From NCBI GenBank assembly GCA_031362155.1, contig JANLRZ010000180.1, positions 31,023-95,022 on the forward strand: a stretch of 64,000 bases of DNA. The letters run 5' to 3'. The notes beneath the pieces are model-generated. The model had not been told where the DNA came from and did not search any database. It was given only the letters and a program-made list of their open reading frames with translations. Position numbers and translations under genes: made by a program. Positions 34,034 to 54,190 of the stretch are shown piece by piece; positions within the stretch are counted from its first letter, which is position 1; each line of letters starts with the position of its first letter. This DNA comes from Acidimicrobiia bacterium (GTDB lineage Bacteria; Actinomycetota; Acidimicrobiia; IMCC26256; JAENVU01).

Positions 34034-36442
34034 TCACAGGTACTGGTGCTTCACCAGATCGCGGGTTGCGAACCAACCGGGGATCGCAGGGAGGTAATAG
34101 AAGACGAGTTGGTTGGCCAGGGCCGCGGCGACCGCGACATCGCGATCGACGCCGAAGGAGACGAGGGCGGCGGAGAGGCCAACGGTGCCGACCGCGGTGG
34201 ACCCGCCGGGAACGGGCACCGAGTTGGCGATGGCAACGACCGCGATGTTGGCGGCGAGGAGCGCCCAGTAGGACGTGTGCCCGCCCACGGCGATGAGACA
34301 CGCCTGGAGACACCAGGTCGCGAGCAGCAGTGCCGCCGCGTTTCCCGCCACCAACAACACGAGATGTCGGGGTGAGCGCAGCGCGTCCCAAACGGTGCGA
34401 GCGGCCCGGGTGATGGCGGGAAAGACGAACCGGCGGACACGAGGAAGGACGACAACGACCGCACTGACGAGGGCGGCGACCACCACGATGAGGACGAGCG
34501 TGGCCAGGAATCCATCGGTGGGGATGAGCGAGAGGTCGACTCGTTGCGGATCGAGGGAGAGCGCGAGGACGAAGAGGATGCCGGACGCGATGAGGGCACC
34601 GGCCGCGCCCAGGATCCCACTGGCAGCGACCGCCGAACTGAGGTCGACGCCGACCTTCTGGAGATAGCGCACCTGCATCGCCTGTCCACCGATGGCCGGG
34701 ATCGCCAGGTTCGAGAACGACATACCGAGTTGGACCTCCGTGGTGCGCCAGAGTGGAAGGCGTATACGGACGGTTCCCTGCAGGCCGATCGCGTACCCGA
34801 CGTTCGAGACCAGCGCATACCCGACCGCGAGGAGCAGCCACTCCCACTCCGCCGCACGGAGCGCTGCCCACACGTCGCCGGTGCCGCCGAGTTCGGAGAG
34901 CAGCACCGCGATCGCGACGAGCGCACCCAGGGCCATGGCCGCGCTGCGCCGACCGATCCGATACATCCGGGTGAGTTCGGGTGCTTCGATGCCGACGGCC
35001 GCCGCGCCCACGGTTCGGAGCCGCCCGAGTCCGCCGACGACCTCGCGCCGCCGGGCACCGACGCGGGGTGCCGCCGCAAGTGCCGCCGGCTGCAACCGCG
35101 GCAAGGCTTCCTTGACCACCGACGCGCCGACCACGTCGATCGCAGTGTTCACGGCGCGCTCGGGGCCGACGAGCGCGGCCGTCGTCGCGAGCATGGTGGC
35201 GACGTCTTGAGCGATGGCTTCCGGCCGGCCGGTCGAGGTGGCGCCGTCGAACCCGACGACGTACGGCTCGCGCCCCACCATGATCACGTGATTCGTGTCG
35301 AAGTCGTTGTGCGCAATTCGTGCGCGATGGAGTGCGCAGACGTTCTCCCAGATCCGCGTGAGCACCGCGTCGTCGATCGTCTCGGGATCGACGTCGGTGA
35401 GGACCCGACCCACGACGGGGCGCTCGACGAGGACCGCGGCTCGAGGGCCAGCCCGGCCGGCGGCGACGATCTCGGGAACCGTCACACCCGCTTGCTTCGC
35501 GACCAGCATGAGGAACGCCTCGTGTTCGACCTGTTGCACGCGCGTGAGTGCCAAGCGAGGCCCCGAGTCGCGGTACACGATCAGGCTCCACAGCTTGGCG
35601 AAGATGCGGGACTGGGCCTCGTCCCGCCCGACCACTTTGATGCGCAGCGGCCCGTCGTCGTCTTCGGCGTGAACGACGGTCGAACCACTGGGCTGATGAT
35701 CCGAGAGCCGCGCGTGACGGGCTTGGATCCCGAGCAACTGGAGTGCGGCCACCACATCCGGGATGGTGGGTCGCATGCCTGGCGATCCGAAGATCAGGTG
35801 GACGCCCGATCCGACGCCCCACCCGAGTGCGACCCCGGCGAAGAGCCCGACGGGAATCGCGTTCCCCAGGTAGAGCGCGGATATCGCGAACCCGCCGACG
35901 AGGAGCCAACCGAAGATGCGGGTGGGGCGACGGACATATGGTGAGGCCACCGTGATGATCGCGACGATCACCGCGATGCGCACTGCCGGGAATGACGGTG
36001 ACTCGCCGAACCGGGCCGCGTTCCGAACGCTGCGGAAGATCGACTCGTTCTCCACGACGAGCCCACCGACCGCGCGCGAGATGGCCCACGCGAGCACGCC
36101 CGCGATGAGGAGATCGCGGGCGAGACTGACCCGCCGGATCACGATCGCGGCGACCACGACCAAGCCCACGGCCCAGAGCGCGCCCAACCGGTACAAGGTG
36201 CGGAAGAACGGCGCGAGCGCGTTGGGCAGCGTGTTGAAGAGGTCGAACAGCGCCTTCTCCGTGGCGGTCGTCGATCCGACGTGGCGAGTTGCCGCGACGA
36301 CCAGGATGATCGAGATCGAAACCGCGACCCAATCTGACGTCCGTCGGCGTCGACCACCTTCACCGGCCCGACGGAAGTAACGACGCCGCCAGCTCGGAAC
36401 GTCGATCGTCGGTTCGGTTGAGCTGGCCGGTGCTGGCTTCAT
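34034..36442 (-). CDS. Membrane protein with PAP2-like TM region, kinase-like domain and LPG-synthase/flippase-like TM domain
   Basis: SFPAVR and YLGNAIP TM block; HEAFL..AGVTVPE..HRARIAHND kinase-like segment; C-terminal TM bundle ending QLVFYYLPAIPGW. Confidence 0.78.
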   Translation of the reverse strand: MKPAPASSTEPTIDVPSWRRRYFRRAGEGGRRRRTSDWVAVSISIILVVAATRHVGSTTATEKALFDLFNTLPNALAPFFRTLYRLGALWAVGLVVVAAIVIRRVSLARDLLIAGVLAWAISRAVGGLVVENESIFRSVRNAARFGESPSFPAVRIAVIVAIITVASPYVRRPTRIFGWLLVGGFAISALYLGNAIPVGLFAGVALGWGVGSGVHLIFGSPGMRPTIPDVVAALQLLGIQARHARLSDHQPSGSTVVHAEDDDGPLRIKVVGRDEAQSRIFAKLWSLIVYRDSGPRLALTRVQQVEHEAFLMLVAKQAGVTVPEIVAAGRAGPRAAVLVERPVVGRVLTDVDPETIDDAVLTRIWENVCALHRARIAHNDFDTNHVIMVGREPYVVGFDGATSTGRPEAIAQDVATMLATTAALVGPERAVNTAIDVVGASVVKEALPRLQPAALAAAPRVGARRREVVGGLGRLRTVGAAAVGIEAPELTRMYRIGRRSAAMALGALVAIAVLLSELGGTGDVWAALRAAEWEWLLLAVGYALVSNVGYAIGLQGTVRIRLPLWRTTEVQLGMSFSNLAIPAIGGQAMQVRYLQKVGVDLSSAVAASGILGAAGALIASGILFVLALSLDPQRVDLSLIPTDGFLATLVLIVVVAALVSAVVVVLPRVRRFVFPAITRAARTVWDALRSPRHLVLLVAGNAAALLLATWCLQACLIAVGGHTSYWALLAANIAVVAIANSVPVPGGSTAVGTVGLSAALVSFGVDRDVAVAAALANQLVFYYLPAIPGWFATRDLVKHQYL

Positions 36443-37918: not shown

Positions 37919-38794
37919 TCATGGTGGCGTCCCCGCATCGATGGTGCGTTCCGACCATTCGACGAGCTGAGGTACCAGCCGCGGCCAGCGTACGAAGAGG
38001 GAGCCCGTCGTCTCGATCCCCGCGCGACGCTCGTTCCACTCGTTGTCGCCCCACGGGGGCTCGACCAGTTCCGCGCCCGGCAGGCCCGCCGCGATCGCTT
38101 CGGAGGTGGCCCGCGTGTGCGACATGTCCGATGGTCCGCTGCGGAACACCATGATGGGCACACGGAGTTGCGCGATGTCGGAGTCGTCGAGCCCGGGAAC
38201 GAGCGCGTTGTCACACGGGCAGTAGGCGAGCGCCCAGCGATCCATGACCGCAAGAAACTCGGCGCGGTCCATCGCGAGGATCCGGTCGCGGTTGGCCGGA
38301 TTGAATGTTTGGGTCTCCTGCCACTGGTCGAGCGCGGCGACGGCCTCCATTCCTCCGTGCCACGCGGCGTCGGCCGAGGGCATGCAGTAGTAGTTCGCGA
38401 GTTGCAGCAGGCCCGGCACGCCCCCGCTGATCCACCACATCGCCAGGCCCGCGGTCACGTCGGGATTGCGGGCCGCCGTGAGCAGCGAGACGCGTGCCCC
38501 ACCGGATCCGCCCGCGATGATCGTCGGGCCGAGGTCGAGGTGGCGGAGCAGTGCGGCGAGGGCATCGGCCTGGACTTCGGATTCGGATGGGCCGGCGAAG
38601 ACGACCGACGAAGCACCACAGTTGGGACGATCCCACAGCAGGACCTGGTTGCCGTGCCCGGCCAGCGTGCGGGCCATCTCGGGAAGCCCGCCGACGGCTT
38701 TGGTGAACCGACCACCCGGGGTGAGCACCCACGGCCGGCCCTCGCCCACGAGCTCGTACGCGATCTCGATCCCGTCGAGGACTGCGACCGGCAT
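37919..38794 (-). CDS. Alpha/beta hydrolase
   Basis: LTPGGRF, WDRPNCGAS, GGSGGARVS. Confidence 0.8.
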   Translation of the reverse strand: MPVAVLDGIEIAYELVGEGRPWVLTPGGRFTKAVGGLPEMARTLAGHGNQVLLWDRPNCGASSVVFAGPSESEVQADALAALLRHLDLGPTIIAGGSGGARVSLLTAARNPDVTAGLAMWWISGGVPGLLQLANYYCMPSADAAWHGGMEAVAALDQWQETQTFNPANRDRILAMDRAEFLAVMDRWALAYCPCDNALVPGLDDSDIAQLRVPIMVFRSGPSDMSHTRATSEAIAAGLPGAELVEPPWGDNEWNERRAGIETTGSLFVRWPRLVPQLVEWSERTIDAGTPP

Positions 38795-39701: not shown

Positions 39702-40559
39702 ATGTCATCTTCGAGCCCCGCGTCGCTCGCCGAACTGCTCGAACTCGAGCGGCTCGACCGTGATCTGTTCCGCGGTCAGAACGAACCGGGAGCGCGCGAT
39801 CGGTTCTCCCTCTACGGCGGGCAGGTCGCGGCGCAAGCACTCGCGGCGGCGGGCGCGACGGTCAGCGACGATCGGTTGCCGCATTCGTTCCACGGCTACT
39901 TCCTCCGGCCCGGTCAGGTCGACCGACCGGTGATCTTCGATGTGAACCGCGATCGAGACGGCGGTTCGTTCTCCGCCCGCCACGTGCGCGCGGTGCAGGA
40001 TGGTGAGGTCATCTTCTCGATGCTCGCCTCGTTTCACACCGAGCGCGACTCGCCGGTGTTCGACGCGGTGCCGGCACGCGACGCACCCGATCCCGAGACT
40101 CTGCCGTCGCGCCCCTCGATCGCGGCGCTCGTCGAGGTGCGGGAAGTGACGCCCACCCGGATCGTCGGCCGACAGATCCGGCATCCCGATTGTGTGTGGG
40201 TGCGCACGGTCGCGCCATTGCCCGACGATCCGCTCGTCCATGCGTGCGCGCTGGCGTACGCGTCCGACCTCGGGTCTGGATTCGGTCAGACCTACGTGCC
40301 CGGTCTGGCGACGGGCGGGCCGAGCATCGACCACGCCGTGTGGTTCCACGCCCCGTTGCAGGCCGATGAGTGGATGTTGCTCGACCTCGCGCCGCGGAAG
40401 GCGCGCTCGTCGCGGGGCGTGTACGACGGGTCGTTGCGCAATATCGAAGGTGAACTCGGTGCGGTGATCGCCCAGGAGATGCTGCTGCGCGAACTCGTGC
40501 TCGACGATGAGACTCTCCAACGGGTGGCCGACTTCCTCGGTGTCACGCCGGAGGAGTAA
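39702..40559 (+). CDS. tesB: Acyl-CoA thioesterase II
   Basis: YGGQVAAQAL, HSFHGYFLRPG, RDGGSFSAR, ALAYASD, SIDHAVWFH, AQEMLLR. Confidence 0.9.
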   Translation: MSSSSPASLAELLELERLDRDLFRGQNEPGARDRFSLYGGQVAAQALAAAGATVSDDRLPHSFHGYFLRPGQVDRPVIFDVNRDRDGGSFSARHVRAVQDGEVIFSMLASFHTERDSPVFDAVPARDAPDPETLPSRPSIAALVEVREVTPTRIVGRQIRHPDCVWVRTVAPLPDDPLVHACALAYASDLGSGFGQTYVPGLATGGPSIDHAVWFHAPLQADEWMLLDLAPRKARSSRGVYDGSLRNIEGELGAVIAQEMLLRELVLDDETLQRVADFLGVTPEE

Positions 40560-40579: not shown

Positions 40580-42934
40580 TCAGCGATGCGCGTCGCCGCG
40601 CCAGGGTTCAGCCTTGAGGTCGGGGTCGTATTCACGGAGCGGATGGCGGTTCGGGTCGAGCCACGCGTCGGTGTCCCACGGTTCGAATGCGTTGGTCACG
40701 TTGGCGAGACCGGTGGTTGCCAGTTCGGGGTAGTGACGCAGGATCACCGACTTCAGGTTGTTGTCGTCGACCCACTGAATTCCCTCGTCGCTGTAGACCT
40801 CGGGTCGGTAGTCGTCGGTGTAGAAGCGATCGGCCTGGAGTCGACGGCTCGCGTTGAGGATGAAGATCTGGAACATCGTCTCACCGAACCCGAACTTGGT
40901 CGGTCGGTGGGATTCGGCGAGTGTGCCGATCATGAGGTCGAGGTTCTCGACGTTGTCGCCGTAGACCTCGGTCAGCGTGCGAACGACGTCCGTGTCGTCG
41001 GTGAGGTCGTCGAAGGTGCGGATCGGGTTGAGTCCGAGCTGACGGCGGAACTCGTTGTAGCGGGGCACGCCTCGCTCCCGGGCGCGCAGAATGTCGATCG
41101 CACCCATGTCGAACACGGGGTTGCCCGGAATGCTGAGCTCCTGCATGAACTTCGGGAAGTTGTTGAGGACGAGTTGGCCGGGGTGCTGGTTGCCGAAGGA
41201 ATAGAAGAGGCTCGCCATGCCGATGGCATCGGTGACCTTGGGCGAACCGGCTTGTCGGCTGGCGACGAACGGCAGGGACTCGATCAGCGCGCCGGAGCGG
41301 AAGTCACGCAACTCGAGCGTTTCCGGCAGCAATGAGTGGAGCCGGTACACCTCGACGAACTCCTCGGAGAGCCCGTACGCAACGTCATGCCGGTTGATCG
41401 AGTTGCCGATCAGCCCGCCCAGCTCGGGGTTGGAGACCTTGAACTCGGCCACGGCCTTGCGATGTTCGGGCTTGCGGAACTTGTACGTGATGATGCCGTA
41501 CCAGTTGGAGTTGAGCGCCATGGTCAGGGTTTGGTTCGGCAGGATGGCCGGTGTCCACTCGGTGGAATGGATCTTGGCCATGACCGCGGCGTTGACCAAA
41601 CGCGCGATGTTGAACAGCCGGTTGTCGTCCCAGTCGGGATGCGCGCGCTTCAAGTGGTCACAGATTGCGTTGTGTTCGCGGGCGAACAGCGTGTGGAGCA
41701 TCGACAGACCGACCCACCAGTTGCGGATGAACCCGCTGTCCTCGACGCCGTTCGCGCCCCGCGGCAAGGTGTCGCCGTCGAGGCGGAGCTTGCCGTCGAC
41801 GCCGCTGCGCAACCGGTCCTGGGTTGCCTGGTTGCTTCCGTAGATCTGCGACCCGTCCCACCAGTGGGTGACCTCGTTCAGGTGAGTCACCGGCGTCGAC
41901 TCACCGAACTCCCGCCGTGTCGGATCGGGCTGGGTCCGTCCGATGAACATGTTCGACTGGCGGAATCGTTGACGGGCCGGATCGTCCTCGTCGAGGGGGA
42001 TCTCGATGAGGTCGCGCTGGAGGATCTCGCCGTGGGTGACCCAATCGTGATTCTGGAACTGGATCCACGAGGCGGCGAGCAGATTGAGGAATGGCACCTC
42101 TTTCATGGTCTCGCCCCGCGTGAGCAACTTGCGGCTGATCGTGCGCGGGTTCGGGGAGAGGAGTTCTTCGTCGGTGGGTCGCCGGATCGAGGAGTTGGCG
42201 ACGTTGCGTAGGAAGCGCGTGCCGGCGGCGCCCTCTTTGGGATTGTCGAGGCGGTTCCAGCTCCCGTCGGCGGTGCGGAAGTGGGTGACGCCCGGCGGTG
42301 GGGTGAGGTCGTCGGGCGCGAAGCCGGTTCTGACGTTCGTGGGATAGGACGAACGCAGGTTGTCGGCGTCGAGCTTGTTGCGCATGTAGGCGAGCGTGAG
42401 GATCCCCTGCGCGAGCTTCTTGTTGTACCAGTTCGTCCACACCTCGGCTCGGTAGTTCTTCCCGACGATGCGCGTCGCGGCGTCCCAGACCACGTTGGCC
42501 ACGGAGCCGCCGGCGTGGCCGACCAGATAACGCAGTCGTCGCCAGTGGGGGTCGGACCGGTCGGCTTCGGTCGGCGTCGGAAGCTCCGGTGCGGGCGGAG
42601 GCGCGAGCACGACACTGGCGTCGAAGAAGTGGAGTTCGGGAACGAAGACGTTCACTTCGGCGTGTGCGTTGGCGCGGGCCGAGTTCAACAGTTCGACCCA
42701 TTCGGCGTGGTCGGGTTGGCGTTCGAGGGCCCGGGCGAGATGGTCCGCAGCCGCCTCGTAGCGCTCACCGAGGAAGTGAGCGAGGCCCAGCAGCGCCTCG
42801 CTCTCACCCTTCGGGTCGTCGGCCGCGAGGTCGGCCAATGCGTCGACCGCGCCGTCGAAGTCTCGAGCGCGCAGATGCTGCACCGCTTTCTCCCGGGCGC
42901 CGTCCCAGTCTCCCTGCGCGTCGTGTTCGTTCAT
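40580..42934 (-). CDS. Heme peroxidase-cyclooxygenase family protein, fatty-acid alpha-dioxygenase-like, with TPR-like N-terminus
   Basis: LAASWIQFQNHDW (distal His), THWWDGSQIYGS, AKIHSTEWT, EEFVEVYRLHSLLP (catalytic Tyr and proximal His), ERGVPRYNEFRR, ASRRLQADRFYT. Confidence 0.9.
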   Translation of the reverse strand: MNEHDAQGDWDGAREKAVQHLRARDFDGAVDALADLAADDPKGESEALLGLAHFLGERYEAAADHLARALERQPDHAEWVELLNSARANAHAEVNVFVPELHFFDASVVLAPPPAPELPTPTEADRSDPHWRRLRYLVGHAGGSVANVVWDAATRIVGKNYRAEVWTNWYNKKLAQGILTLAYMRNKLDADNLRSSYPTNVRTGFAPDDLTPPPGVTHFRTADGSWNRLDNPKEGAAGTRFLRNVANSSIRRPTDEELLSPNPRTISRKLLTRGETMKEVPFLNLLAASWIQFQNHDWVTHGEILQRDLIEIPLDEDDPARQRFRQSNMFIGRTQPDPTRREFGESTPVTHLNEVTHWWDGSQIYGSNQATQDRLRSGVDGKLRLDGDTLPRGANGVEDSGFIRNWWVGLSMLHTLFAREHNAICDHLKRAHPDWDDNRLFNIARLVNAAVMAKIHSTEWTPAILPNQTLTMALNSNWYGIITYKFRKPEHRKAVAEFKVSNPELGGLIGNSINRHDVAYGLSEEFVEVYRLHSLLPETLELRDFRSGALIESLPFVASRQAGSPKVTDAIGMASLFYSFGNQHPGQLVLNNFPKFMQELSIPGNPVFDMGAIDILRARERGVPRYNEFRRQLGLNPIRTFDDLTDDTDVVRTLTEVYGDNVENLDLMIGTLAESHRPTKFGFGETMFQIFILNASRRLQADRFYTDDYRPEVYSDEGIQWVDDNNLKSVILRHYPELATTGLANVTNAFEPWDTDAWLDPNRHPLREYDPDLKAEPWRGDAHR

Positions 42935-43056
42935 TGACCTCTGCCTCGGGTTCGATGACCGATGCGACGTTCCCCGCCCGTCGCGAGCGGAAGGTACCAC
43001 CGACACTGGCCAACGGGCACTGGCGACTGGGTTCGGTCTACCGTGCGCTGCCCCTG

Positions 43057-44595
43057 ATGAAAGGACCGACTCTCGTGCCTCCTTCCGTGTCTCTCGGCTG
43101 GCGGGTGAAGCGCTGGTTCTGGAACACGCTCACGACGCTCAAGTACCACGGAGAGGTCCCGACCGTGATCGGTGCGCCCCGTCCCGATGACCGCGAGATT
43201 CGGCTGGTTCCGTTTCGGTCGAAGTATCCCGCGATCCCGATCAACGGCGCCCTCGTGGCCGATGAAGTGCCCGCCGATGAGGTCGAGCAGAAGAAGGTGG
43301 TGTTCACGAAGGTCCAGCACCGACTCCTTGATTGGATCCCGCCGACGACGGACGGGCTGCCCGCGGTCGCCGAGTCGGCGCAGGTCGCACTGGACGAGGC
43401 CTACACGCCCGCGCACCGTCGGTGTTTTCCCGAACCGGTGCGCCCATCCGAACTGGGGCTCGGCGCGCTGGCCGTCGCGAGTCCCTACGCGAGTTATCTC
43501 CACGCGTCGGGTCCGGGCACGTTTCGGTGGGACGTGAGTGTGCTCGCCGACTTCGAGTGCCACGCCGGGCTCGTGCCCCCGGGGGCCGTGGTCGACTTCA
43601 CACTCGACGTGAGCACCGGCGCGCTCGAGCCGATCCGGATCGAGGCCAACGGGGCCAGCGTGCAACCGGGAGCCGCCGGGTGGGCCGACGCGGAGCGGAT
43701 GGCGGTGTGTTCGGTGACGACCCACGCGGCCATGGTGCGCCACTTCAACTGGTTGCACCTGACCGCCGGCCAACCGCTCGAGGCCGCCACCCGGAATCGG
43801 CTCCCGGCCAACCACCCGATTCGACGGCTGCTCTGGCCACACGTCTTCGGGACTCACGCCGGCAACGCACTGGTCACGGACGTGTTGTTGTCTCCGGGCG
43901 GAGACTTCGAGGGGATCTTCAGCTTTACCCACCGCGGCATGTGCGAACTGTTCGATGCGACCTCGACGAGTTTTGATCTGGCCTCGATCAACCCGATCCT
44001 CGACGCGTCCCGGCGGGGCATGACCCAGAGCGCGGTCGCCACCCCCGCATCGGACAACTGGAGCAGTCTCTACGCGGTGATGTTCGACCATGCGCAGCGT
44101 TATCTCGCGGTGTATTTCCCGTCGGACGAGGATGTGGTCGCCGACCAGGCGCTGGGTGCCTGGATCGATGACCTCGACCATTTCCTGCCGAACGGCACCC
44201 GCGGGGTGCTCGGCGAGACGGTGACGGCCGCGGGCGTCGCGTCGCTGTTGGCCACGGTGATCTACCTCGCGACCGTGGAGCACGAGATCACGGGCAGTGG
44301 TCTGTGGGACTACCAATTGTGGACCGACACGTCGCCGGTCCGGATCTACGAAGACGGACGCCGGTTGCCCGTCGACGTGTATCAGCGACTCGTCAACGCG
44401 AATCTCACGCTGAACGTCCATCGCACGATGTTGCTGAACGACACCGTGATCGGTGTCGCGCTCGACGAGCGAGGGGCCGGCGCATTCCGAGAGTTTCAGC
44501 AGGACCTGCTGGGGCTCCAGGCGCGCCTCGATCGGGGCACCCCGGCACCGTGGCGGCTCGAGCCGCGTCACCTCAAGGCGAACATCAACGCGTAG
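43057..44595 (+). CDS. Lipoxygenase (divergent, catalytic domain only)
   Basis: VRHFNWLHL (two Fe-His), LP.NHPIRRLLWPH, TVEHEITG (third His), C-terminus LKANINA; start uncertain (43057 or 42955). Confidence 0.85.
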   Translation: MKGPTLVPPSVSLGWRVKRWFWNTLTTLKYHGEVPTVIGAPRPDDREIRLVPFRSKYPAIPINGALVADEVPADEVEQKKVVFTKVQHRLLDWIPPTTDGLPAVAESAQVALDEAYTPAHRRCFPEPVRPSELGLGALAVASPYASYLHASGPGTFRWDVSVLADFECHAGLVPPGAVVDFTLDVSTGALEPIRIEANGASVQPGAAGWADAERMAVCSVTTHAAMVRHFNWLHLTAGQPLEAATRNRLPANHPIRRLLWPHVFGTHAGNALVTDVLLSPGGDFEGIFSFTHRGMCELFDATSTSFDLASINPILDASRRGMTQSAVATPASDNWSSLYAVMFDHAQRYLAVYFPSDEDVVADQALGAWIDDLDHFLPNGTRGVLGETVTAAGVASLLATVIYLATVEHEITGSGLWDYQLWTDTSPVRIYEDGRRLPVDVYQRLVNANLTLNVHRTMLLNDTVIGVALDERGAGAFREFQQDLLGLQARLDRGTPAPWRLEPRHLKANINA

Positions 44596-46219: not shown

Positions 46220-46873
46220 TCACCAACCGATCTCGAGCGCGTGGCGGATCTGGGCGACGGTGTATCCCGGGTACGAGCGGTAGGCGAAGAGCTGCACGTT
46301 GGTAGGCGGATCCGTTCGCTGGCACTCGTCGATGAGCAGGACCAACCGTCGACTCATCTTGACGATGTCGCGGTCGTCGGCGGGACCGAGCGCCAATGCA
46401 CTCGCCGGGTAGTCGAGCTGGAGGGCATCGCGGGTCCGCACCCACTCGATGAAATCGTCGGGGTACTGCTCGACCGGCAGCGGAGGCGCGTCATTGATGA
46501 AGGGGAGCAACGCGTCGAATGCCGAACCCACGTTGTAGATGAAGTCGCGGATGTAGTTGGCGAAGTCACCGTCGTAGAAGCTGAACATGCACAGGTTGTC
46601 ACCGACGATGGTGAACCGCGCGAAGTGCACGATCTGGGTGTTGTCGAGCCCGGCGATGACCTCTTGGACGGCGCCGGCCAGGGCCTGGATCAATTTCGCC
46701 CGACCGAACGGAGAGCCGTCGGCGAGGGGCATGACCAGGTTCATCGGGATCTGGATGTTGTCCGACGGATTCGTCGAGAACACGCGGACCGGGATCTGCG
46801 GCGGGTCACGCCGACGCCAGATCGCGGTCAGCGCCCTGATCAGCAGTCGTTCGCCCAGTCCTGGGGTGGTCAT
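46220..46873 (-). CDS. Hypothetical protein of the HFARF...SFYDG type, co-transcribed with DyP
   Basis: IVHFARFTIV..LCMFSFYDGDFANYIRDF..FDALL; 3-nt gap to the DyP start; RBS ggag. Confidence 0.7.
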   Translation of the reverse strand: MTTPGLGERLLIRALTAIWRRRDPPQIPVRVFSTNPSDNIQIPMNLVMPLADGSPFGRAKLIQALAGAVQEVIAGLDNTQIVHFARFTIVGDNLCMFSFYDGDFANYIRDFIYNVGSAFDALLPFINDAPPLPVEQYPDDFIEWVRTRDALQLDYPASALALGPADDRDIVKMSRRLVLLIDECQRTDPPTNVQLFAYRSYPGYTVAQIRHALEIGW

Positions 46874-46960: not shown

Positions 46961-48190
46961 ATGAACGTGATCTCGCCCGAGCTGGTCGGCGCCCTCATCG
47001 ACGCGATGGGTCCGTCGTTCCCCGAGCACGTTGCCGGAACCCGTCCGATCCACGCCAAGGGCATCGGCGTCGGGGGCAACTTCGTGGCGAGCTCGGTGGC
47101 GTCGAAGTACTGCGTGGCAAAGCAGTTCGACGGCCGCGTGGTCCCGGTGACCGTGCGGTTCTCGAACGGCAACGGTCAACTGGATCCGGACTTCCGGCTC
47201 CAGGTGCGGGGCATGGCCGTGAAGTTCTTCGCGGGCGGCACCCGGGAGACCGGGAGAGCCGGCGCTCGCGCCGAGCGCTCCTATGTCGGGATGCACTACG
47301 ACGACGGTCCGATCGTGGCCCGACCGGGCGAGGAGATCGCCGAGACCGACCTCGTCTGCATGTCGGCGCCGGTGTTCATGGCCCAGAGCGCCGAACGTCT
47401 CCTCGAGTTCGAGCAGAGCTACCGCGCCGTCAAGGTTCGCCGCGCCGGTCTGATGAAGCGCATCAAGTCGCTCCTCACGATGAGTCCGCTGCTCCCGCTG
47501 GAGTCCGGGGTCACGATGTCGGGCAACGAGGGATTTCTGCAGTGGGCCCGGACCTACCCGCCGGCCCAGGCATTCCTGCTTGCCAACGCTGGGCAGCGGC
47601 TCCCGGCGAGTTACGCGCGGGTCGTGTACGACGCGGTCCACGCATTCGAGGCGCAGGGATCGACGGGTACCCGTCGGATGGTGCGGTTCACGCTCGAACC
47701 GTCCGACGGCGTCTTCACCACCGGTGGACCCGACCCGGCCCAAACGCCGATCGCCTCGTTTCTCCGTCCGGCCGACCTCAACGCTCACGGGTCGGAGCTG
47801 GGCGCCGACTACCTCCAGCGCGAGCTGCGAGAGCGCCTCTCGTACGCGCCGGGCCGATTCAACGTGCGCATGCAGATCGCCGACCCGTCCGACGACACGG
47901 CGGACCCGACGGTGGCGTGGCCGATCAACCGGCGCCGGGTCCTGATGGGCACGCTGACCTTGACCCACGTGCTCGCAGATCAGGTCACAGGCTGTGAACT
48001 CCTGAGCTTCAACCCCGGGCGTCTCCTGCCGGGGATGGCGATCTCGGACGATCCGGTCCTCGCGGACCGGTCCGCGGTGTACGAGGAGTCGTATCGGCGT
48101 CGCGCCGCGGCGCGGGCGGGGGGCTCGATCACCCCGTCGTCGTCGTCTCCGAAAGCGTCCTCGTCGGGTTGCCCGATGGGGTTGTCCTAG
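46961..48190 (+). CDS. Small catalase-fold heme protein (catalase-related, hydroperoxide-lyase/AOS/SrpA-like)
   Basis: RPIHAKG distal His, VRFSNG, RGMAVKF, F.PGRLLPGM..SDDPVLADRSAVYEES (proximal RxxxY); 409 aa. Confidence 0.85.
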   Translation: MNVISPELVGALIDAMGPSFPEHVAGTRPIHAKGIGVGGNFVASSVASKYCVAKQFDGRVVPVTVRFSNGNGQLDPDFRLQVRGMAVKFFAGGTRETGRAGARAERSYVGMHYDDGPIVARPGEEIAETDLVCMSAPVFMAQSAERLLEFEQSYRAVKVRRAGLMKRIKSLLTMSPLLPLESGVTMSGNEGFLQWARTYPPAQAFLLANAGQRLPASYARVVYDAVHAFEAQGSTGTRRMVRFTLEPSDGVFTTGGPDPAQTPIASFLRPADLNAHGSELGADYLQRELRERLSYAPGRFNVRMQIADPSDDTADPTVAWPINRRRVLMGTLTLTHVLADQVTGCELLSFNPGRLLPGMAISDDPVLADRSAVYEESYRRRAAARAGGSITPSSSSPKASSSGCPMGLS

Positions 48191-50878
48191 CTATTCGTGG
48201 TCCGACACCGCGCTCGTGAGGTCACGACGAGCCCGCGCGATCTCACTGCGGACGTATTCCATCGCCTGATCGAACTCCATCGCCATTCCCGCGGCGACGT
48301 TGGCGTCGAACTCCGCATCGCCGAGTTTGGCCCGTAGGTCGTCGAGCACCTTCGGGAGGCGAACGGTCATGCTGATGCCCTGGCGGGTGCTCATGCCGTA
48401 GATCTGCGCCGCGATTTCGGGCTGGTCGAGCCCGTCGAACAACACCGTACCGAGGGCGAGCGTCGTGACGACGCTGCCGTGATTGCCGGCTCGGTGGTAC
48501 CGGGTCAACGCGGTGTCGAGGAGTTCGAGCGCCCGTTCCGGATGGCCGAGGACTCCTTCGAGCCCGGCGATCTCGCGGATGAAGTTGACCTCGAAGAATG
48601 CGAGGCGCTGTTGGCGGGCGTATTCGAGCGCGTCACGCATGATGACCATCGCCCGTACCGGGTCCGAGTCGGCGTAGGCGCGTCCGTGGCCGACTTCGGC
48701 GAACGCGATCCAGTAGGGATTACCGAGTTCGTGCGCCGCCGCGATCGCTGCGACGGCGAGGGCCTGGGCTTCGTCGGATCGATCGATGCCGGGCAACACC
48801 GCGAGGGGCAGGACGAGACCGACGACGCGAGTGAGTCCGGGCCGACGAGCGGCTTCGTCACAGATCTCGAACATCGTGTCGAGCCGTCCGGCGTACCGGC
48901 ACGCGAACGCCAGCCAGGCGTTGCTCCATCCGATTTCGAACGTCTCGTACTGCGGGTCCGCTTCGAGGGCCAGTGCCCGTTCGGCATACTCGATGGCTAC
49001 CTCGGGTCGGCCCGTGAGCGCACACACACAGGCCGCGGTGTACAGCCGAGGGAGCTGCACCACGTTGGCCGCAGTGGCCGCGGGAAGGATGTCTTCGACC
49101 CAGCCGAACGACTCGAAGCGCTGGAGGGCCATGGTCAGCATCGTGGTGTGGGCGGCGATGGTGACCGCCGTATCCAGTTCGTCGTGGGACGCCGCCCACC
49201 GGAACGCGATACGGAGATTGGCGAACTCGCGCTCGACCCAGTCGAGCGCGTCCCGCTGATTGGGACTGTTCCAGTGCGACCAGCGGATCTCGGCGTGTTC
49301 GGCGAAGTGCCGCGCGTGGACCCGACGCACGTCGTTCCGGGTCCCGGTCTCCTCGAGTTGTCCGTCGCCGTACTGGCGGATCGTCTCGAGCAGGGCGAAG
49401 CGCATCCGCCCGGCAGACTGATCGGTGGTGATCAGCGACTTGCGGACGAGCGAGTCGAGGAGATCGAGCACCGTGAACTCGTCGATCCCCGCCGAGGCGG
49501 CGATGGCGGTGGCGGCCTCGAGGTCGAACCCGTCGGCGAAGACCGAACACCGGTCGAGCATCAGTCGTTCGTCGTCGGTCAGCAGGTCGTAGGACCACGA
49601 CACCGCCTTGCGGAGCGTCTGGTGGTGTTCGAGATCGTGACGTGACCCGGACAACAGCCGGAACCGATCCGAGAGGCGGTCGCGAACATCGGCCGGGCTC
49701 ATCGAGGTCATGCGGGCGGCCGCCAGTTCGATGGCCAGCGCGAGACCGTCGAGGCGCCGGCAGATCTCGACGACTGCGGCCGCGTCGGTGGGGTCGTCAT
49801 CGGCGAAGGCCGGGTTGACCGACCGGGCTCGTTGGCGGAACAACTCGACCGCCGCCGACGTGGATCCCGCCGTGACGTCGAGGGTCGGGACGGGCCAGAC
49901 GTGCTCGGCGCCGAGGCGAAGACTCTCGCGGCTGGTGGCGAGGACCTGCACCACCTGGGTGGTTCGGAGCAACGCATCGACGAGATCGGCCGCGGCGGCG
50001 TGGACGTGCTCGCAGTTGTCGAGCACGATCAGGAGTCGGCGACCCGTCACGGCCTGGGCGATGCACTCGGTGACGGTGTGTCCCGCCATTGGCGTGACCC
50101 CGAGCACGGCGGCGACGGCATCGGGAAGTGATTCGGAGGCGCCGATCGGCGCGAGCGCCACCACCCAGACCCCGTCGGTGAACTCGTGGGCCAACTCGGC
50201 AGCGGCCTGGAGGGCCAGGCGAGTCTTGCCCACGCCGCCCGTCCCGGTGAGAGTGACGAGCCGGTGTTGGCGCACGAGCGTGCCGACTTCATCGAGCTGG
50301 TCCTCGCGACCGATGAAGCTCGTGGTCTGGGTCGGTAGGTTCCCGAGGGTGGCGCTGAGGGTGCGCGGCGGCGGGAAGCTCGATCTGAGCCCATCGGCGT
50401 GGACCTGGAAGAGGCGGGTCGCGTCACCGAGATCGCGGAGGCGATGTTCACCGCAGTCGACAAGTTGGATGGTCTTGAGGTTCTCGACGACGCTCGCCGT
50501 GGAGTTGTGCACGAGGATCTGGCCGCCGTGCGCGGCGTCCATCACCCGAGCCGCTCGGCTCAGGGTGAGTCCGAAATAGTCGCGGTCCCGTTGCTCGGCT
50601 TCCCCCGTGGCAATCCCCATCCGTACGGGGAGATCCAATGCGTGTTGGGCCTCGATCGCGGCATCGATGGCCGCCTGGCCCGAGTCGAATGCCGCACAGA
50701 CGCCGTCGCCGGTGTGCTTGAACAGGTCGCCGCCGTGGGCCGCGACTGCGCTTCGCAGCACGGCGTCGTGGGCGTCGAGTGCGGCACTCATCGTGTCGTG
50801 GTCGTCCCGCCAGCGCCGGGTCGAACCCTCGATGTCGGTCAGCAGGAAGGTGACGAGCCGTTGCGGACGTTCGGCCAC
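48191..50878 (-). CDS. Class III cyclase domain + STAND (NB-ARC-like) ATPase + TPR-like helical repeats
   Basis: FLLTDIEGST, KHTGDG, RAARVMDAAHGGQ, GTGGVGKTRL Walker A, LIVLDNCEH Walker B, RLDGLALAIELAAAR; start chosen. Confidence 0.88.
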   Translation of the reverse strand: MAERPQRLVTFLLTDIEGSTRRWRDDHDTMSAALDAHDAVLRSAVAAHGGDLFKHTGDGVCAAFDSGQAAIDAAIEAQHALDLPVRMGIATGEAEQRDRDYFGLTLSRAARVMDAAHGGQILVHNSTASVVENLKTIQLVDCGEHRLRDLGDATRLFQVHADGLRSSFPPPRTLSATLGNLPTQTTSFIGREDQLDEVGTLVRQHRLVTLTGTGGVGKTRLALQAAAELAHEFTDGVWVVALAPIGASESLPDAVAAVLGVTPMAGHTVTECIAQAVTGRRLLIVLDNCEHVHAAAADLVDALLRTTQVVQVLATSRESLRLGAEHVWPVPTLDVTAGSTSAAVELFRQRARSVNPAFADDDPTDAAAVVEICRRLDGLALAIELAAARMTSMSPADVRDRLSDRFRLLSGSRHDLEHHQTLRKAVSWSYDLLTDDERLMLDRCSVFADGFDLEAATAIAASAGIDEFTVLDLLDSLVRKSLITTDQSAGRMRFALLETIRQYGDGQLEETGTRNDVRRVHARHFAEHAEIRWSHWNSPNQRDALDWVEREFANLRIAFRWAASHDELDTAVTIAAHTTMLTMALQRFESFGWVEDILPAATAANVVQLPRLYTAACVCALTGRPEVAIEYAERALALEADPQYETFEIGWSNAWLAFACRYAGRLDTMFEICDEAARRPGLTRVVGLVLPLAVLPGIDRSDEAQALAVAAIAAAHELGNPYWIAFAEVGHGRAYADSDPVRAMVIMRDALEYARQQRLAFFEVNFIREIAGLEGVLGHPERALELLDTALTRYHRAGNHGSVVTTLALGTVLFDGLDQPEIAAQIYGMSTRQGISMTVRLPKVLDDLRAKLGDAEFDANVAAGMAMEFDQAMEYVRSEIARARRDLTSAVSDHE

Positions 50879-51082
50879 CTCCCCAGGATGCCATACCCGC
50901 TGGATGTACTTGCCAGTTCGACGACATCTGGCGGAGAGGGTCATGAGAGGTGCAGGTCGAGCCGGCGCCCGAGTACCGTCCAGCGGGGCAGTCGGGTGGG
51001 TGCAACTCGCCAGCCTGGCGCGGGAGGGCAACCGGGTGCTGGAGGCGACGATGACGTGCCAATCCGAGAGGTGGCCGTCGTG

Positions 51083-54000
51083 ATGATCCGACGGATCCCC
51101 GTGCTCCTGCGTGGGCTCACTCCGGTGTTCGCGCTCCTGCTCCTGGGTACGTCGCTGATCATGGGCCAACAGACCGACGTGATCGCGGCCATGCATCCCG
51201 AGGGGTGTCCGGCCGGAACGCCGGTCGAGTTCCAGTGGTCGCCGACGGGGACGCGCAACGAGCAGGAGTTCGTCGGCGTGGTCGAAGCGTGGAACTCCCA
51301 CCGCCTCCGGCGGGTGCCGGCGGGAACCGGTGGTGTCGCCGCCGCCAACTCCTGCAAGGTGGCCCTCAAGGACTCGGATGAGGTCGACCTGACCGGGCGG
51401 GTCAAGTCGCCGCACAGCATCGCCCGGCAATGGATGTGGACCGACATCCTCGGGTTCACGGCGCTCTACGGACTCTTGCTCGTCGGGCTCCTCCTCAACG
51501 AGCGGGTGCGCGCGCAGACCGCGGCCGCGCCCGACGAGCGCGCGCGCCCGCTGGGCCGCAATCTCGCGCGCACCGAACGGGAGCTCAACCGGTGGTTGCG
51601 GCACGGGTGGTGGTTCGCGGCGGTCGGGATCGCCGTGGCGATGGACTGGGCGGAGAACGCCGCGCTGCTCGGCCAGTTCCGCCGAGCCTGGGATCACGTG
51701 GTCCAGTTCGGAACGGTGTCGGCCGACCAGGTGGACCTCGGCTGGGTCCACGCGTTCGGGGTAGTGAAGTGGTTGGCGCTCGCGGCGCCGGTGGCGTTGC
51801 TGGTAGTGGCCTATGTGATCCGGGCCGTGCAGCGATTGGTCACGCTCCGAACCGTGATTCGCAAGCAGCTCCCGCTCCTCGCGGTCGCGATGGTGTTCGG
51901 GGTGATCCTCCTCGTGCCACCCCAAGGCCTCGACGCCGTCCGCGGGTTGTCGCTCACGCGTCTCTTCGGGACGCTCGCGGTGGTGCTCGTCCTCGGCCAG
52001 GTCCTGACCCTCGCCGGCGCGACCGCGTTGCGGAAGCAGCATCTGGAGGGGCAGGAAGCCCCGGTTCGTTCGACCGCCGAGTCACGGCGCCGCCGGCTGG
52101 CACCTTCGGTCGCGCTCCTGGCCGTGGCGTTGGCCCTGGCCGTCGTCGGCTCCCTGCTCGGATGGAAGGGTCTCCTGGTTCCAGCGGTGCTCCTGGGCGC
52201 GCTCGCGCTCGTGTCGGCGTTCATCGACTTTCGTGAGCCGTCCGGCGCCACCCCGCCGGAGCGCACGTTCGGTGACGCCACGATCGACGACTTCGATCTG
52301 CGGGTCTCGGTGTCGAGCGTGGCCGGGGCCTTGGTCGTGGTCGGGTTCGGCGCCGCGCTCGTCGAGACGGCGGCGTTGGATTTCGCATACTTCAGTTCGG
52401 CCGACGGCGTCGCGGCGCGGATGGGGATCGGTCTGGCCATCCTCGGTATGGCGCCGGCCGTGCGTGGATGGTTCCGACGGGTCGCGTGCTGGCTCGAGGC
52501 TCGATCCGACGCGCAGAAGACGCTCGTCGCAGTCCTCCTCACACTCCTGGCTCTACCGGGATTGATCTTCCACGACCCGGATCTCAACCTTCGTTTCGCA
52601 CCACTATTCGGCGCGGTGGTGGTGCTCGCCATGTTCCTCGGCGGGATGGCGCTCTTGCTCGTGTGGGCCGATCGCCTGGCCTTCTTCCTGGCTCGCAACG
52701 AGCAACGGCGAATGGTGTTCCTCCCCACGATCCTTCGGGAGTTCGGCGTCTCACGGCCGCCCGTCGTCAGCTTCGTGGTCGTGTGGGCTGTGGTGGCCGG
52801 CATCGGATTTCGCGGGACCGGTCACGACGTACGGGTCGTCACCGGATCGAAGGTTGCCGAGCAGTCGCTCGACTCGATCGTGGGCGCGTGGATCGATCGC
52901 CACCCGGGTCTGGCGACCGCGAACCCGCCGAACGCGGCCGCACCGGCGTTGCTGGTGAGTAGTTCCGGCGGCGGGATCCGCGCCGCGTACTGGACTGCCG
53001 CCGTGCTCGATTGCGTGACCGAGGGACGGACCGTCGGTTCCAACCCGTGCGCGCGCGAGACCGACCCCGCCACCGTTGCGCGTCGGCGAGGCGCGCTCCT
53101 CGCGATGTCGGGCGTGAGCGGTGGCAGTTTGGGTATCGCGGAGTACGTGAGCGAGACCGTGCCGGTCGGCATGGGCGAACGACATCCCGTCGCGGCGACG
53201 CACTGGTACGACGAGAAGCTCGGCGTGGATTTCCTTTCGTCGACCCTGGCCGCCTACTTGTTCAACGACGGTCTGAACTCACTGATCCACCCGGACCACC
53301 CAGTCGATCGGGCGGCGATCACCGAACGGTCCTGGGAGAAGCCGTGGTCCGATGGGCGCCTGGGCCGTCACTACCTCTCGGACCAGGCCACCCACACCCA
53401 GCCGCTCCTATTGCTGAGCGGCTACAGCGTCGAGGACGGCTGTCGGTTCTCGGCGTCGATCCTCGCCGCCAACGCGGGGCGGACCGCACAACAGTGCGGG
53501 AAGGCCGCGACCGGCCGTGACGGCGAGTTGCTGGCGAGCACCGACCTGCCCGACGTGCTGTGTGAAGGGACCGATGTTCGGTGGTCGACCGCGGCCCTGC
53601 TCTCGGCGCGGTTCCCTTGGATCAGCCCGACCGGCTCGATCGGTAGGGGTGCCTGCGGCGACCCCGCCGCGCACACGCAGGTGGCCGACGGCGGGTATCA
53701 CGAAGCGTCGGCTGCGAGTGCGATCAACGAACTGATGCCGCGGGTGCACGAGATCATCGACGAGCAGCAACAGGGCTGCGTCGTTCCCCTCTTCCTGCAG
53801 ATCGACAATGGGTATTCCGGACCGTCGTCGACGGCGGATTCTGCGGTCGGCCAGATCACTGCTCCGATCACGGGGATTCTGAAGTCGACCACCGGTTGGG
53901 AAGCGGCGGCACGGGCCGACTCGCGGCGGCTCTTCGGCGGTGCGTTCGGGAACCATCCGCGCGCAACGGTGAACGGCTCTCCGGTCGAGCGGTGGTTCCA

Positions 54001-54190
54001 CATCGAGACCCGAGCGCATCCGGGCGCGGAAGCTCCGCTCGGTTGGGTGCTCTCCAAGACCGCGACCGCGGATCTCAAAGACCAGCTCAAGGTGAACCGC
54101 GCCGAAATCGAGCGGTTGCGGAACGTTCTGGACGCAGAGACCGACCTCGAGTGCGCAGCCCCGCTCGTCGACCCGTCGACCCCGGGCTGA
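51083..54190 (+). CDS. Large polytopic membrane protein with C-terminal patatin-like lipase domain
   Basis: Many TM helices, then SGGGIRAA (52967), GVSGGS (Ser 53117) and ADGGY (Asp 53687); start within 51071-51083. Confidence 0.82.
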   Translation: MIRRIPVLLRGLTPVFALLLLGTSLIMGQQTDVIAAMHPEGCPAGTPVEFQWSPTGTRNEQEFVGVVEAWNSHRLRRVPAGTGGVAAANSCKVALKDSDEVDLTGRVKSPHSIARQWMWTDILGFTALYGLLLVGLLLNERVRAQTAAAPDERARPLGRNLARTERELNRWLRHGWWFAAVGIAVAMDWAENAALLGQFRRAWDHVVQFGTVSADQVDLGWVHAFGVVKWLALAAPVALLVVAYVIRAVQRLVTLRTVIRKQLPLLAVAMVFGVILLVPPQGLDAVRGLSLTRLFGTLAVVLVLGQVLTLAGATALRKQHLEGQEAPVRSTAESRRRRLAPSVALLAVALALAVVGSLLGWKGLLVPAVLLGALALVSAFIDFREPSGATPPERTFGDATIDDFDLRVSVSSVAGALVVVGFGAALVETAALDFAYFSSADGVAARMGIGLAILGMAPAVRGWFRRVACWLEARSDAQKTLVAVLLTLLALPGLIFHDPDLNLRFAPLFGAVVVLAMFLGGMALLLVWADRLAFFLARNEQRRMVFLPTILREFGVSRPPVVSFVVVWAVVAGIGFRGTGHDVRVVTGSKVAEQSLDSIVGAWIDRHPGLATANPPNAAAPALLVSSSGGGIRAAYWTAAVLDCVTEGRTVGSNPCARETDPATVARRRGALLAMSGVSGGSLGIAEYVSETVPVGMGERHPVAATHWYDEKLGVDFLSSTLAAYLFNDGLNSLIHPDHPVDRAAITERSWEKPWSDGRLGRHYLSDQATHTQPLLLLSGYSVEDGCRFSASILAANAGRTAQQCGKAATGRDGELLASTDLPDVLCEGTDVRWSTAALLSARFPWISPTGSIGRGACGDPAAHTQVADGGYHEASAASAINELMPRVHEIIDEQQQGCVVPLFLQIDNGYSGPSSTADSAVGQITAPITGILKSTTGWEAAARADSRRLFGGAFGNHPRATVNGSPVERWFHIETRAHPGAEAPLGWVLSKTATADLKDQLKVNRAEIERLRNVLDAETDLECAAPLVDPSTPG

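Follow-up and report, generated by a model that had tools for sequence, protein, structure and literature searches.

The stretch of DNA analysed here (the window) comprises 64,000 nucleotides from an Acidimicrobiia bacterium (GenBank assembly GCA_031362155.1, contig JANLRZ010000180.1, positions 31,023 to 95,022), and carries at 46961-48190 of its forward strand an open reading frame (ORF) for a catalase-fold protein of 409 aa, here named P0001. Next to this gene lie those of a small protein, U217, and of a DyP-family peroxidase, and the same two partners accompany the catalase-fold gene in many other bacteria; the three genes form a genomically linked triad, which is the core of the module proposed below. 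In the window the triad is flanked by a regulator gene and by genes resembling those of a fatty-acid alpha-dioxygenase (alpha-DOX) and a lipoxygenase (LOX), the latter two within 4 kb of the P0001 gene (Table 1).

A core-only catalase fold with an altered distal site

The ORF has a G+C content of 0.88 at third codon positions (GC3), compared with 0.65 for the overlapping antisense frame, and because a GC3 of 0.88 is typical of genes in this window of 67% G+C, the ORF is considered a real gene; its ATG agrees with the N-termini of the homologues. P0001 matches the Pfam Catalase family (PF00199) at 73.1 bits (E = 3e-20; gathering cut-off 25), and a profile built from 41 family members matches true catalases at E-values of 1e-30 to 1e-38. 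On its sequence, P0001 is thus a catalase-fold haem protein, with features beyond chance. The closest solved protein is not an ordinary catalase but MAP-2744c (3e4w) of Mycobacterium avium subsp. paratuberculosis, which heads the phmmer search (1.7e-31), ordinary catalases coming next; with the family profile the values are 3.3e-61 for MAP-2744c and 2e-38 for the top true catalase. An alignment-based AlphaFold2 (AF2) model of P0001 has a mean predicted local distance difference test score (pLDDT) of 88.5 and a predicted template modelling (TM) score of 0.88, with low confidence in an insert at about residues 100-110 and in the last 17 residues (pLDDT below 50). Foldseek again places 3e4y/3e4w first (E = 2.9e-27, TM score 0.87 on the target), with true catalases at about 1e-19. 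No allene oxide synthase (AOS) was among the best 50 fold matches, and the coral enzyme (cAOS) was absent from the best 60 sequence matches as well.

Relatives were gathered by a protein search (375 proteins) and by a pattern scan with one genome per species (80 loci); the proteins encoded next to the P0001 gene were then searched by tblastn against 86 loci, from which the catalase-fold proteins were extracted for a tree. The tree resolves two groups, each with 100/100 support: clade B (65 rows), which includes the window gene and has hosts in the Acidimicrobiia, the Alpha-, Beta- and Gammaproteobacteria and others, and the MAP-like clade A (8 rows), whose eight loci come from Mycobacterium, Solirubrobacteraceae and Dormiibacterota and encode proteins of about 310 aa with the motif 'RA.HAKG'. 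The genes that neighbour P0001 in the window are absent from the clade A loci fetched. Clade B is a distinct, broad and uncharacterised clade of mini-catalases, sister to the MAP-2744c type. A literature search returned no description of clade B, its tail, its triad or the combination of catalase, DyP, LOX and alpha-DOX, and a plasmid collection yielded no clade B member, the only matches being genes named 'catalase family peroxidase', with less than 30% identity and of MAP/srpA type. Two divergent catalase-fold proteins were also seen. P0238 (660 aa) has a MAP-like catalase-fold domain with an apparent Gln in place of the distal His (YRAAQAKG), followed by a linker that contains CP and by a domain of the alpha/beta-hydrolase type; this relative may lack catalytic activity or have a different one. 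A Crocosphaera locus (L086:8839-10930) encodes a catalase-like protein of another subfamily (..RTQHPKSHG.., AVNTPIFF), divergent from an ORF that by eye resembles a haem oxygenase.

The initial annotation had noted that the distal His (PIHAKG) and the proximal Tyr (RSAVY) are retained, and both His31 and Tyr374 (codon at nt 48080-48082) proved invariant among the 41 homologues, together with R28, R66, R370 and R381. The spacing between Arg370 and Tyr374 equals that between Arg354 and Tyr358 of the human enzyme, and Arg28, Arg66 and Arg381 correspond by position to the three haem-propionate arginines. The haem site is therefore predicted to be intact and capable of cleaving peroxide O-O bonds.

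The distal Asn of true catalases had been thought to be lost, on the grounds that the segment around it reads DLVCMSAPVFM (residues 130-140), and the alignment bears this out. The family segment 'tdliaMSvpvfm' aligns gap-free with 'fdlvgNNtpvff' of solved true catalases, so that hydrophobic Met134 takes the place of the distal Asn (human Asn148, the first N of NN), on which true catalases rely for H2O2 turnover, and Ser135 that of the second N. The aligned segment of MAP-2744c reads 'tdvsaQTarll', with Gln at the distal Asn site. Throughout clade B this site is occupied by M in 52 members, I in 7, T in 2 and A, V and S in one each, and the residue preceding the distal His is V in 35, I in 27 and L in 2, Thr being found in none of the 64 readable members.

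P0001 shares with monofunctional catalases (human 1DGF, E. coli HPII) the core beta-barrel, the proximal helix and the R-x-x-H, VRFS and R...Y...R motifs. Unlike them, it lacks not only the distal Asn but also the N-terminal arm, the wrapping loop and the C-terminal helical domain, from which catalases build their tetramer and their long H2O2 channel, and consists of a single core with lineage-specific insertions; the chain stops 35 residues past the proximal Tyr, and its catalase matches are limited to the core (about 370-385 alignment columns, TM score about 0.5 on targets of 480-500 residues). MAP-2744c (33 kDa, 3E4W/3E4Y) resembles P0001 in its core-only fold, its distal His, Tyr/Arg pair and propionate Arg, the hydrophobic residue (Leu) before the His and the absence of the distal Asn. 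It differs in belonging to the sister clade at 28-29% identity, in its length of about 300-320 aa, and in ending in ...DRGAQAPPV without a Cys-Pro tail; it also lacks the insertion of about 30 aa that in P0001 precedes the PASY motif.

The Cys-Pro tail and the constant partners

A Ser-rich linker followed by GCPM had been noticed at the C-terminus of P0001, and both are indeed present: the tail ends in GCPMGLS and is disordered in the AF2 model. A C-terminal Cys-Pro occurs in 62 of the 65 clade B members, as compared with none of the eight of clade A, and is retained down to about 35% identity; the Cys is present in 99% of the clade B alignment rows. Of the three members without it, L006 has truly lost the motif, L056 is a truncated ORF and L077 comes from a metagenome-assembled genome (MAG) with a frameshift. 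The residue after the motif is F in 43 members, V in 18, M in 3 and I in 1. Twelve residues separate the proximal Tyr from the Cys in 57 of 65 members; in P0001 the distance is 30 because of the Ser-rich linker. Both the loss of the distal Asn and the Cys-Pro tail are traits of the whole clade and not peculiarities of P0001.

The suggestion that the Cys-Pro dipeptide is a haem-regulatory motif (HRM) fares less evenly. In HRMs it is the Cys of the CP pair that binds haem, and those of haem oxygenase-2 (HO-2) help to load haem into the catalytic site (PMC8808069). Such motifs usually have a hydrophobic residue after the CP and lie in a flexible part of the chain. Both features are found in the P0001 tail, which, like the C-terminal HRMs of HO-2, is a disordered end of a haem enzyme. 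The tail thus has the form of a putative HRM. Typical HRMs are free-floating, whereas the Cys of most clade B members stands at a fixed distance from the proximal Tyr. Moreover, an '..NCP' stands shortly after the proximal helix in true catalases too, and HMMER aligns it with the CP of the family, so that the Pro may be a structural element kept by descent.

Homologues of both U217 and the DyP adjoin the catalase-fold gene in 62 of the loci searched. Two clade B loci were scored as partnerless, both on contigs that end right after the catalase-fold gene; in all the remaining clade B loci both partner genes lie within a few hundred bases. MAP-2744c-type relatives have no such neighbours in the loci fetched. 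In proteobacteria the order on a single strand is catalase-fold gene, U217, DyP, and U217 and DyP overlap by a few nucleotides in many loci. The clade-for-clade co-occurrence of the tail with the partners counts as one evolutionary event, not as 62. An apparent catalase-U217 fusion (L077:10584-11762) was discarded as an assembly artefact, as it stems from a frameshift in a long-read MAG that gives AYEDLAQKARRH in place of AYEDSRKRRGVTQCPF.

U217 has 33 invariant alignment columns and the conserved motifs MNLvMPL, VHFARF, CMFSvYDGDF.NYIRDFI and YPG..AAQ.R...GW, and gave zero matches in Pfam, NCBIfam or PADLOC. Its AF2 model (pLDDT 78.5) has a beta-alpha-beta-beta-alpha core with weak matches (E about 1e-2) to ferredoxin-like or dimeric alpha+beta-barrel proteins (MupZ 6fxd, 2op5, 3bgu). 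The idea that U217 is a free-standing DyP half-domain was rejected (hhalign probability against the DyP family, 0.4%), as was that of a membrane anchor, since the most hydrophobic 19-residue stretch mostly scores less than 1.6 and the N-terminus is better described as a conserved amphipathic helix with no clear transmembrane segment. The DyP partner matches fungal D-type DyPs at 1e-18, and its distal Asp (FGYRD), its proximal His (CPIGSHIRRANPR; CP.G.H.RR.NPR) and an RRG motif, which we take to mark the distal Arg, are conserved over 65 loci. DyP residues 389-394 (CPIGSH) contain an invariant Cys-Pro, with the Cys five residues ahead of the proximal His; in 8re3, the closest solved DyP, Val-Pro stands there instead. 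Near-invariant cysteines occur in both partners (U217 Cys95, 94%; DyP Cys79, 92%; DyP Cys389, 100%), which hints at a thiol relay or at protein-protein contacts and is a further point against a simple HRM reading of the tail. In about 40 loci the triad is adjoined by a homologue of the cyclase/STAND/helix-turn-helix regulator. Beyond U217, the DyP and the regulator, no neighbour is conserved clade-wide among the clade B loci, and PADLOC gave no defence-system match for any of the seven proteins examined.

Variable neighbours of the triad

The alpha-DOX-like enzyme matches the rice alpha-DOX 4kvj at 5.7e-116 and the Arabidopsis enzyme 4hhr at 1e-105. This gene and the LOX-like gene recur in 12 related loci; the LOX-like gene was found in 12 loci of one Acidimicrobiia subclade only, and the DOX/LOX-linked catalase-fold genes form one nested Acidimicrobiia subclade of 13 rows (100/100). 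Both oxygenases are absent from about 50 other clade B genomes that have the triad. In relatives of the window locus, a DOX-LOX fusion of about 1100 aa (L003, L006 and L015) and a DyP-LOX fusion of 1076-1079 aa (L002, L009 and L011) were also observed, and a patatin gene is sometimes present alongside. Beyond the regulator lies the gene of a large putative patatin, for which Pfam gave no match to the longer ORF 50399-54190; the related locus L002 has a patatin gene of its own that is unrelated to it. Upstream of the island are genes for a TesB-like acyl-CoA thioesterase II (39702-40559, +), an alpha/beta hydrolase (37919-38794, -) and an 802-aa protein with a membrane domain of the lysyl-phosphatidylglycerol-synthase type (34034-36442, -), all of them lipid-related, which may or may not belong to the P0001 locus.

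Table 1. Features of the P0001 gene and of the genes around it (window positions)
Feature	Position	Strand	Evidence or remark
Fatty-acid alpha-dioxygenase-like haem enzyme, N-terminal TPR region	40580..43006	-	An_peroxidase 1.9e-110
Lipoxygenase-like gene	43057..44595	+	PF00305 2e-8; PDB lipoxygenases ~1e-11
DyP-family peroxidase, 543 aa	44585..46216	-	3 nt downstream of U217; PDB 8re2/8re3 2e-31
U217, 217-aa partner (family size ~200-250 aa), divergent from catalase-fold gene	46220..46873	-	found in 68 loci
P0001, Cys-tailed mini-catalase	46961..48190	+	PF00199, 3e4w match, AF2/Foldseek, GC3
Distal His31 in PIHAKG (residues 29-34), after Ile30	47051..47053	+	invariant in 41 homologues
33-aa insertion, residues 95-127	47243..47341	+	alignments; only in closest Acidimicrobiia relatives; pLDDT ~52 at ~100-110
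Met134 at catalytic distal Asn site	47360..47362	+	profile-to-PDB alignment, 'aMS' on 'gNN'
Arg370...Tyr374 in RSAVY (residues 370-374): proximal haem ligand Tyr and hydrogen-bonding Arg	48068..48082	+	both invariant
Ser-rich linker, residues 387-403	48119..48169	+	only in nearest relatives of window gene; pLDDT <50 from residue 393
Cys404-Pro405, then Met: C-terminal CP-hydrophobic motif	48170..48175	+	tail GGSITPSSSSPKASSSG-CPMGLS
Cyclase/STAND-NTPase/TPR regulator, convergent, abuts catalase-fold gene	48191..50944 (start estimated)	-	Pfam Guanylate_cyc, AAA_16, NB-ARC, TPR
Large protein, putative patatin	51083..54190	+	homologue only in L007

An exhaustive profile search brought to light long relatives of P0001 in which other enzymes are fused to the catalase-fold domain. 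In one proteobacterial subclade it is joined to a phosphoesterase of PF04185 (phospholipase C/acid phosphatase family) in a protein of 812 aa, with U217 and the DyP next to it, and the ORF of about 800 aa is uninterrupted in seven of the seven members (L038, L042, L043, L045, L050/L087, L075 and L078); at L045:8522-11020, for example, PF04185 makes up the N-terminal half and the Cys-tailed catalase-fold domain the C-terminal half. Another fusion, P0134 (730 aa, L088:8001-10193), combines an SGL (SMP-30/gluconolactonase-like) domain with the catalase fold and is likewise followed by U217 and the DyP; in 13 loci of the roseobacter/alphaproteobacterial subclade a separate SGL gene adjoins the triad or is close to it (L032, L039-41, L052, L054, L055, L057-61 and L083). 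Since these feeder genes vary by subclade, the triad is regarded as the core to which different lineages have attached different, mostly lipid-related, upstream enzymes.

Proposed function of the triad and competing explanations

Taken together, these observations suggest that P0001 is probably not a catalase but a haem enzyme that uses hydroperoxides, within a triad that processes lipid peroxides, a reading to which we assign a probability of roughly 0.55. P0001 would be a cytoplasmic haem-b protein with a catalase core that does not dismutate H2O2; a lipid or organic hydroperoxide would sit in its hydrophobic distal pocket, as it may in MAP-2744c, where His31 and the Tyr-ligated iron would split the O-O bond and the oxidised haem would then be reduced, the hydroperoxide being converted to an alcohol (ROOH to ROH) or serving as the oxidant for a co-substrate. 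In the window, hydroperoxides would be supplied by the alpha-dioxygenase (as 2-hydroperoxy fatty acids) and/or by the LOX-like enzyme, from fatty acids possibly released by the products of the neighbouring putative patatin or TesB genes; the DyP and U217 would belong to this pathway or to one complex with P0001. The most speculative step concerns the tail, in which Cys404 could be either an HRM-like thiolate that binds or loads haem or a redox arm that touches a partner. It is also tempting to imagine a physical three-protein, two-haem machine of P0001, U217 and the DyP, in which the tail Cys, U217 Cys95 and DyP Cys389 form a thiol/thiolate relay that passes haem or oxidising equivalents and membrane-lipid hydroperoxides from interchangeable feeder enzymes (alpha-DOX/LOX, phospholipase-C-like or lactonase-like) are processed, but we consider this extension rather improbable.

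Several points weigh against the proposed function. The chemistry is extrapolated from MAP-2744c, the only characterised relative, a protein of the sister clade with 29% identity; gene linkage indicates a shared pathway, not a substrate; the SGL group is not restricted to lipid enzymes, and acid phosphatases also belong to PF04185. In the Bradyrhizobium-type subclade, the largest, only the regulator is found near the triad, with no recognisable lipid enzyme. As to the tail, the spacing of 12 residues is no less compatible with a Cys held in a fixed structure than with a mobile motif.

The closest competitor was the initial proposal itself, namely that P0001 is a hydroperoxide lyase (HPL), an AOS or an epoxyalcohol synthase (EAS), which would rearrange or cleave a DOX- or LOX-derived hydroperoxide without an external reductant and thereby set the end product of the cluster. 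Such enzymes, among them coral cAOS and cHPL, the AOS of Acaryochloris and the 10S-HPL of Nostoc punctiforme, are like P0001 catalase-fold proteins with a Tyr-ligated haem, are without catalase activity, and are coupled or fused to the oxygenase that supplies the hydroperoxide (PMC5617202; PMC13049297; PMC10813956); genetic coupling to a fatty-acid oxygenase is found at the P0001 locus as well, where the alpha-DOX-like and LOX-like genes adjoin the catalase-fold gene in the 13-member subclade. A haem dioxygenase working together with a catalase-related HPL is reported by Brash et al. (2014; cited in PMC9579011 and PMC13049297), and the Nostoc pair of 10S-DOX and 10S-HPL, like the other coral and cyanobacterial AOS/HPL enzymes, provides a precedent (PMC13049297; PMC9579011; PMC10813956). 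In addition, the ferredoxin-like core of U217 is weakly similar to epoxide-handling or cyclase proteins (MupZ, E about 1e-2), and U217 could act on an unstable epoxide. Because the Nostoc precedent is real and U217 could handle such an epoxide, an isomerase or lyase is a possibility of some weight, though unlikely. Against it, the Thr-His pair, the hallmark of catalase relatives that transform fatty-acid hydroperoxides according to the title of a 2016 paper by Mashhadi et al. (cited in PMC10813956), is missing: P0001 has Ile30-His31, and V/I/L-His is found clade-wide. The loss of the distal Asn, on which the proposal partly rested, is not a marker of AOS/HPL enzymes, because cAOS retains Asn137 together with Thr66-His67 (PMC5617202), where P0001 has Met and Ile-His, and it is thus uninformative here. 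Furthermore, cAOS does not appear among the closest sequence and fold matches, and in most clade B members the triad occurs without a DOX or a LOX. We know of no description of DyP/U217 partners or of a CP tail for AOS/HPL enzymes. That P0001 determines the final product of the cluster is likewise not established, because the partnership with the DyP and U217, its oldest and most constant neighbours, is older and commoner than the link to DOX and LOX. Parts of the initial proposal do stand: P0001 is a catalase-fold haem protein without the distal Asn, in all likelihood not a true catalase, and belongs to a conserved DOX/LOX cluster. Between reduction of the oxidised haem (peroxidase) and rearrangement of the substrate (AOS, HPL or EAS), we favour a peroxidase-type reaction, because P0001 has no Thr-His pair, its nearest assayed relative acts as a peroxidase and the triad predates the DOX/LOX association. 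That relative, MAP-2744c, is reported by Pakhomova et al. (2009) to have negligible catalase activity, a weak peroxidase activity with H2O2 and a strong one with organic hydroperoxides.

The remaining explanations are less probable. A small true catalase that clears H2O2 and so shields the neighbouring haem and iron oxygenases would account for the fold, the distal His, the Tyr/Arg pair and a Val/Ile-His that recalls the Val-His of true catalases, and homologues are named 'catalase' in databases; but the distal Asn is absent clade-wide, the arm, wrapping loop and C-terminal helical domain are lacking, and the negligible catalatic activity reported for MAP-2744c speaks against it, so that this is the explanation we regard as least likely. 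P0001 lacks the defining features both of a true catalase (distal Asn, accessory domains) and of the AOS/HPL group (Thr-His). If the CP tail were a genuine HRM, P0001 might alternatively store or sense haem, or deliver it to the DyP, with no catalysis of its own. Conservation of the motif, a disordered tail with CP and then a hydrophobic residue, coincides exactly with the presence of the DyP and U217, the DyP has its own invariant Cys-Pro before the proximal His, and HO-2 offers a precedent (PMC8808069); nevertheless, the full catalytic set has stayed unchanged even among distant homologues, as it should in an enzyme, and the hydrolase fusions suggest a metabolic step, which makes a purely haem-handling role improbable. 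A secondary-metabolism oxidase dependent on O2 or superoxide, comparable to the chanoclavine synthase EasC and acting on a non-lipid substrate provided by the variable neighbours, is suggested by the presence of EasC (9jdc) among the fold and sequence matches, by neighbours that differ from subclade to subclade and by the usual presence of a dedicated STAND-type regulator. However, EasC is no nearer to P0001 than ordinary catalases are (E = 1e-18, rmsd 9.1), and genes for polyketide synthases, non-ribosomal peptide synthetases or prenyltransferases are not conserved near the triad; there is thus only a slight chance that this explanation holds.

The known catalase-related haem proteins comprise the true catalases, a few oxylipin isomerases (AOS/HPL) and one assayed bacterial mini-catalase. 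To these, clade B adds a group with a signature of its own, in which a hydrophobic residue replaces the distal Asn, the chain ends in a C-terminal Cys-Pro and a DyP and a protein without a family are obligatory partners. The hydroperoxide-using reading of P0001 amounts to a testable hypothesis, that of a dedicated, regulated module with which bacteria process lipid hydroperoxides or make oxylipins, and cultured hosts of clade B exist in Bradyrhizobium, Ruegeria and Sedimentitalea. The Cys-Pro tail may be a bacterial motif of the HRM type that is built into a haem enzyme, and the clade as a whole represents a natural experiment on the roles of the distal Asn and of the residue adjacent to the distal His in the chemistry of the catalase fold.

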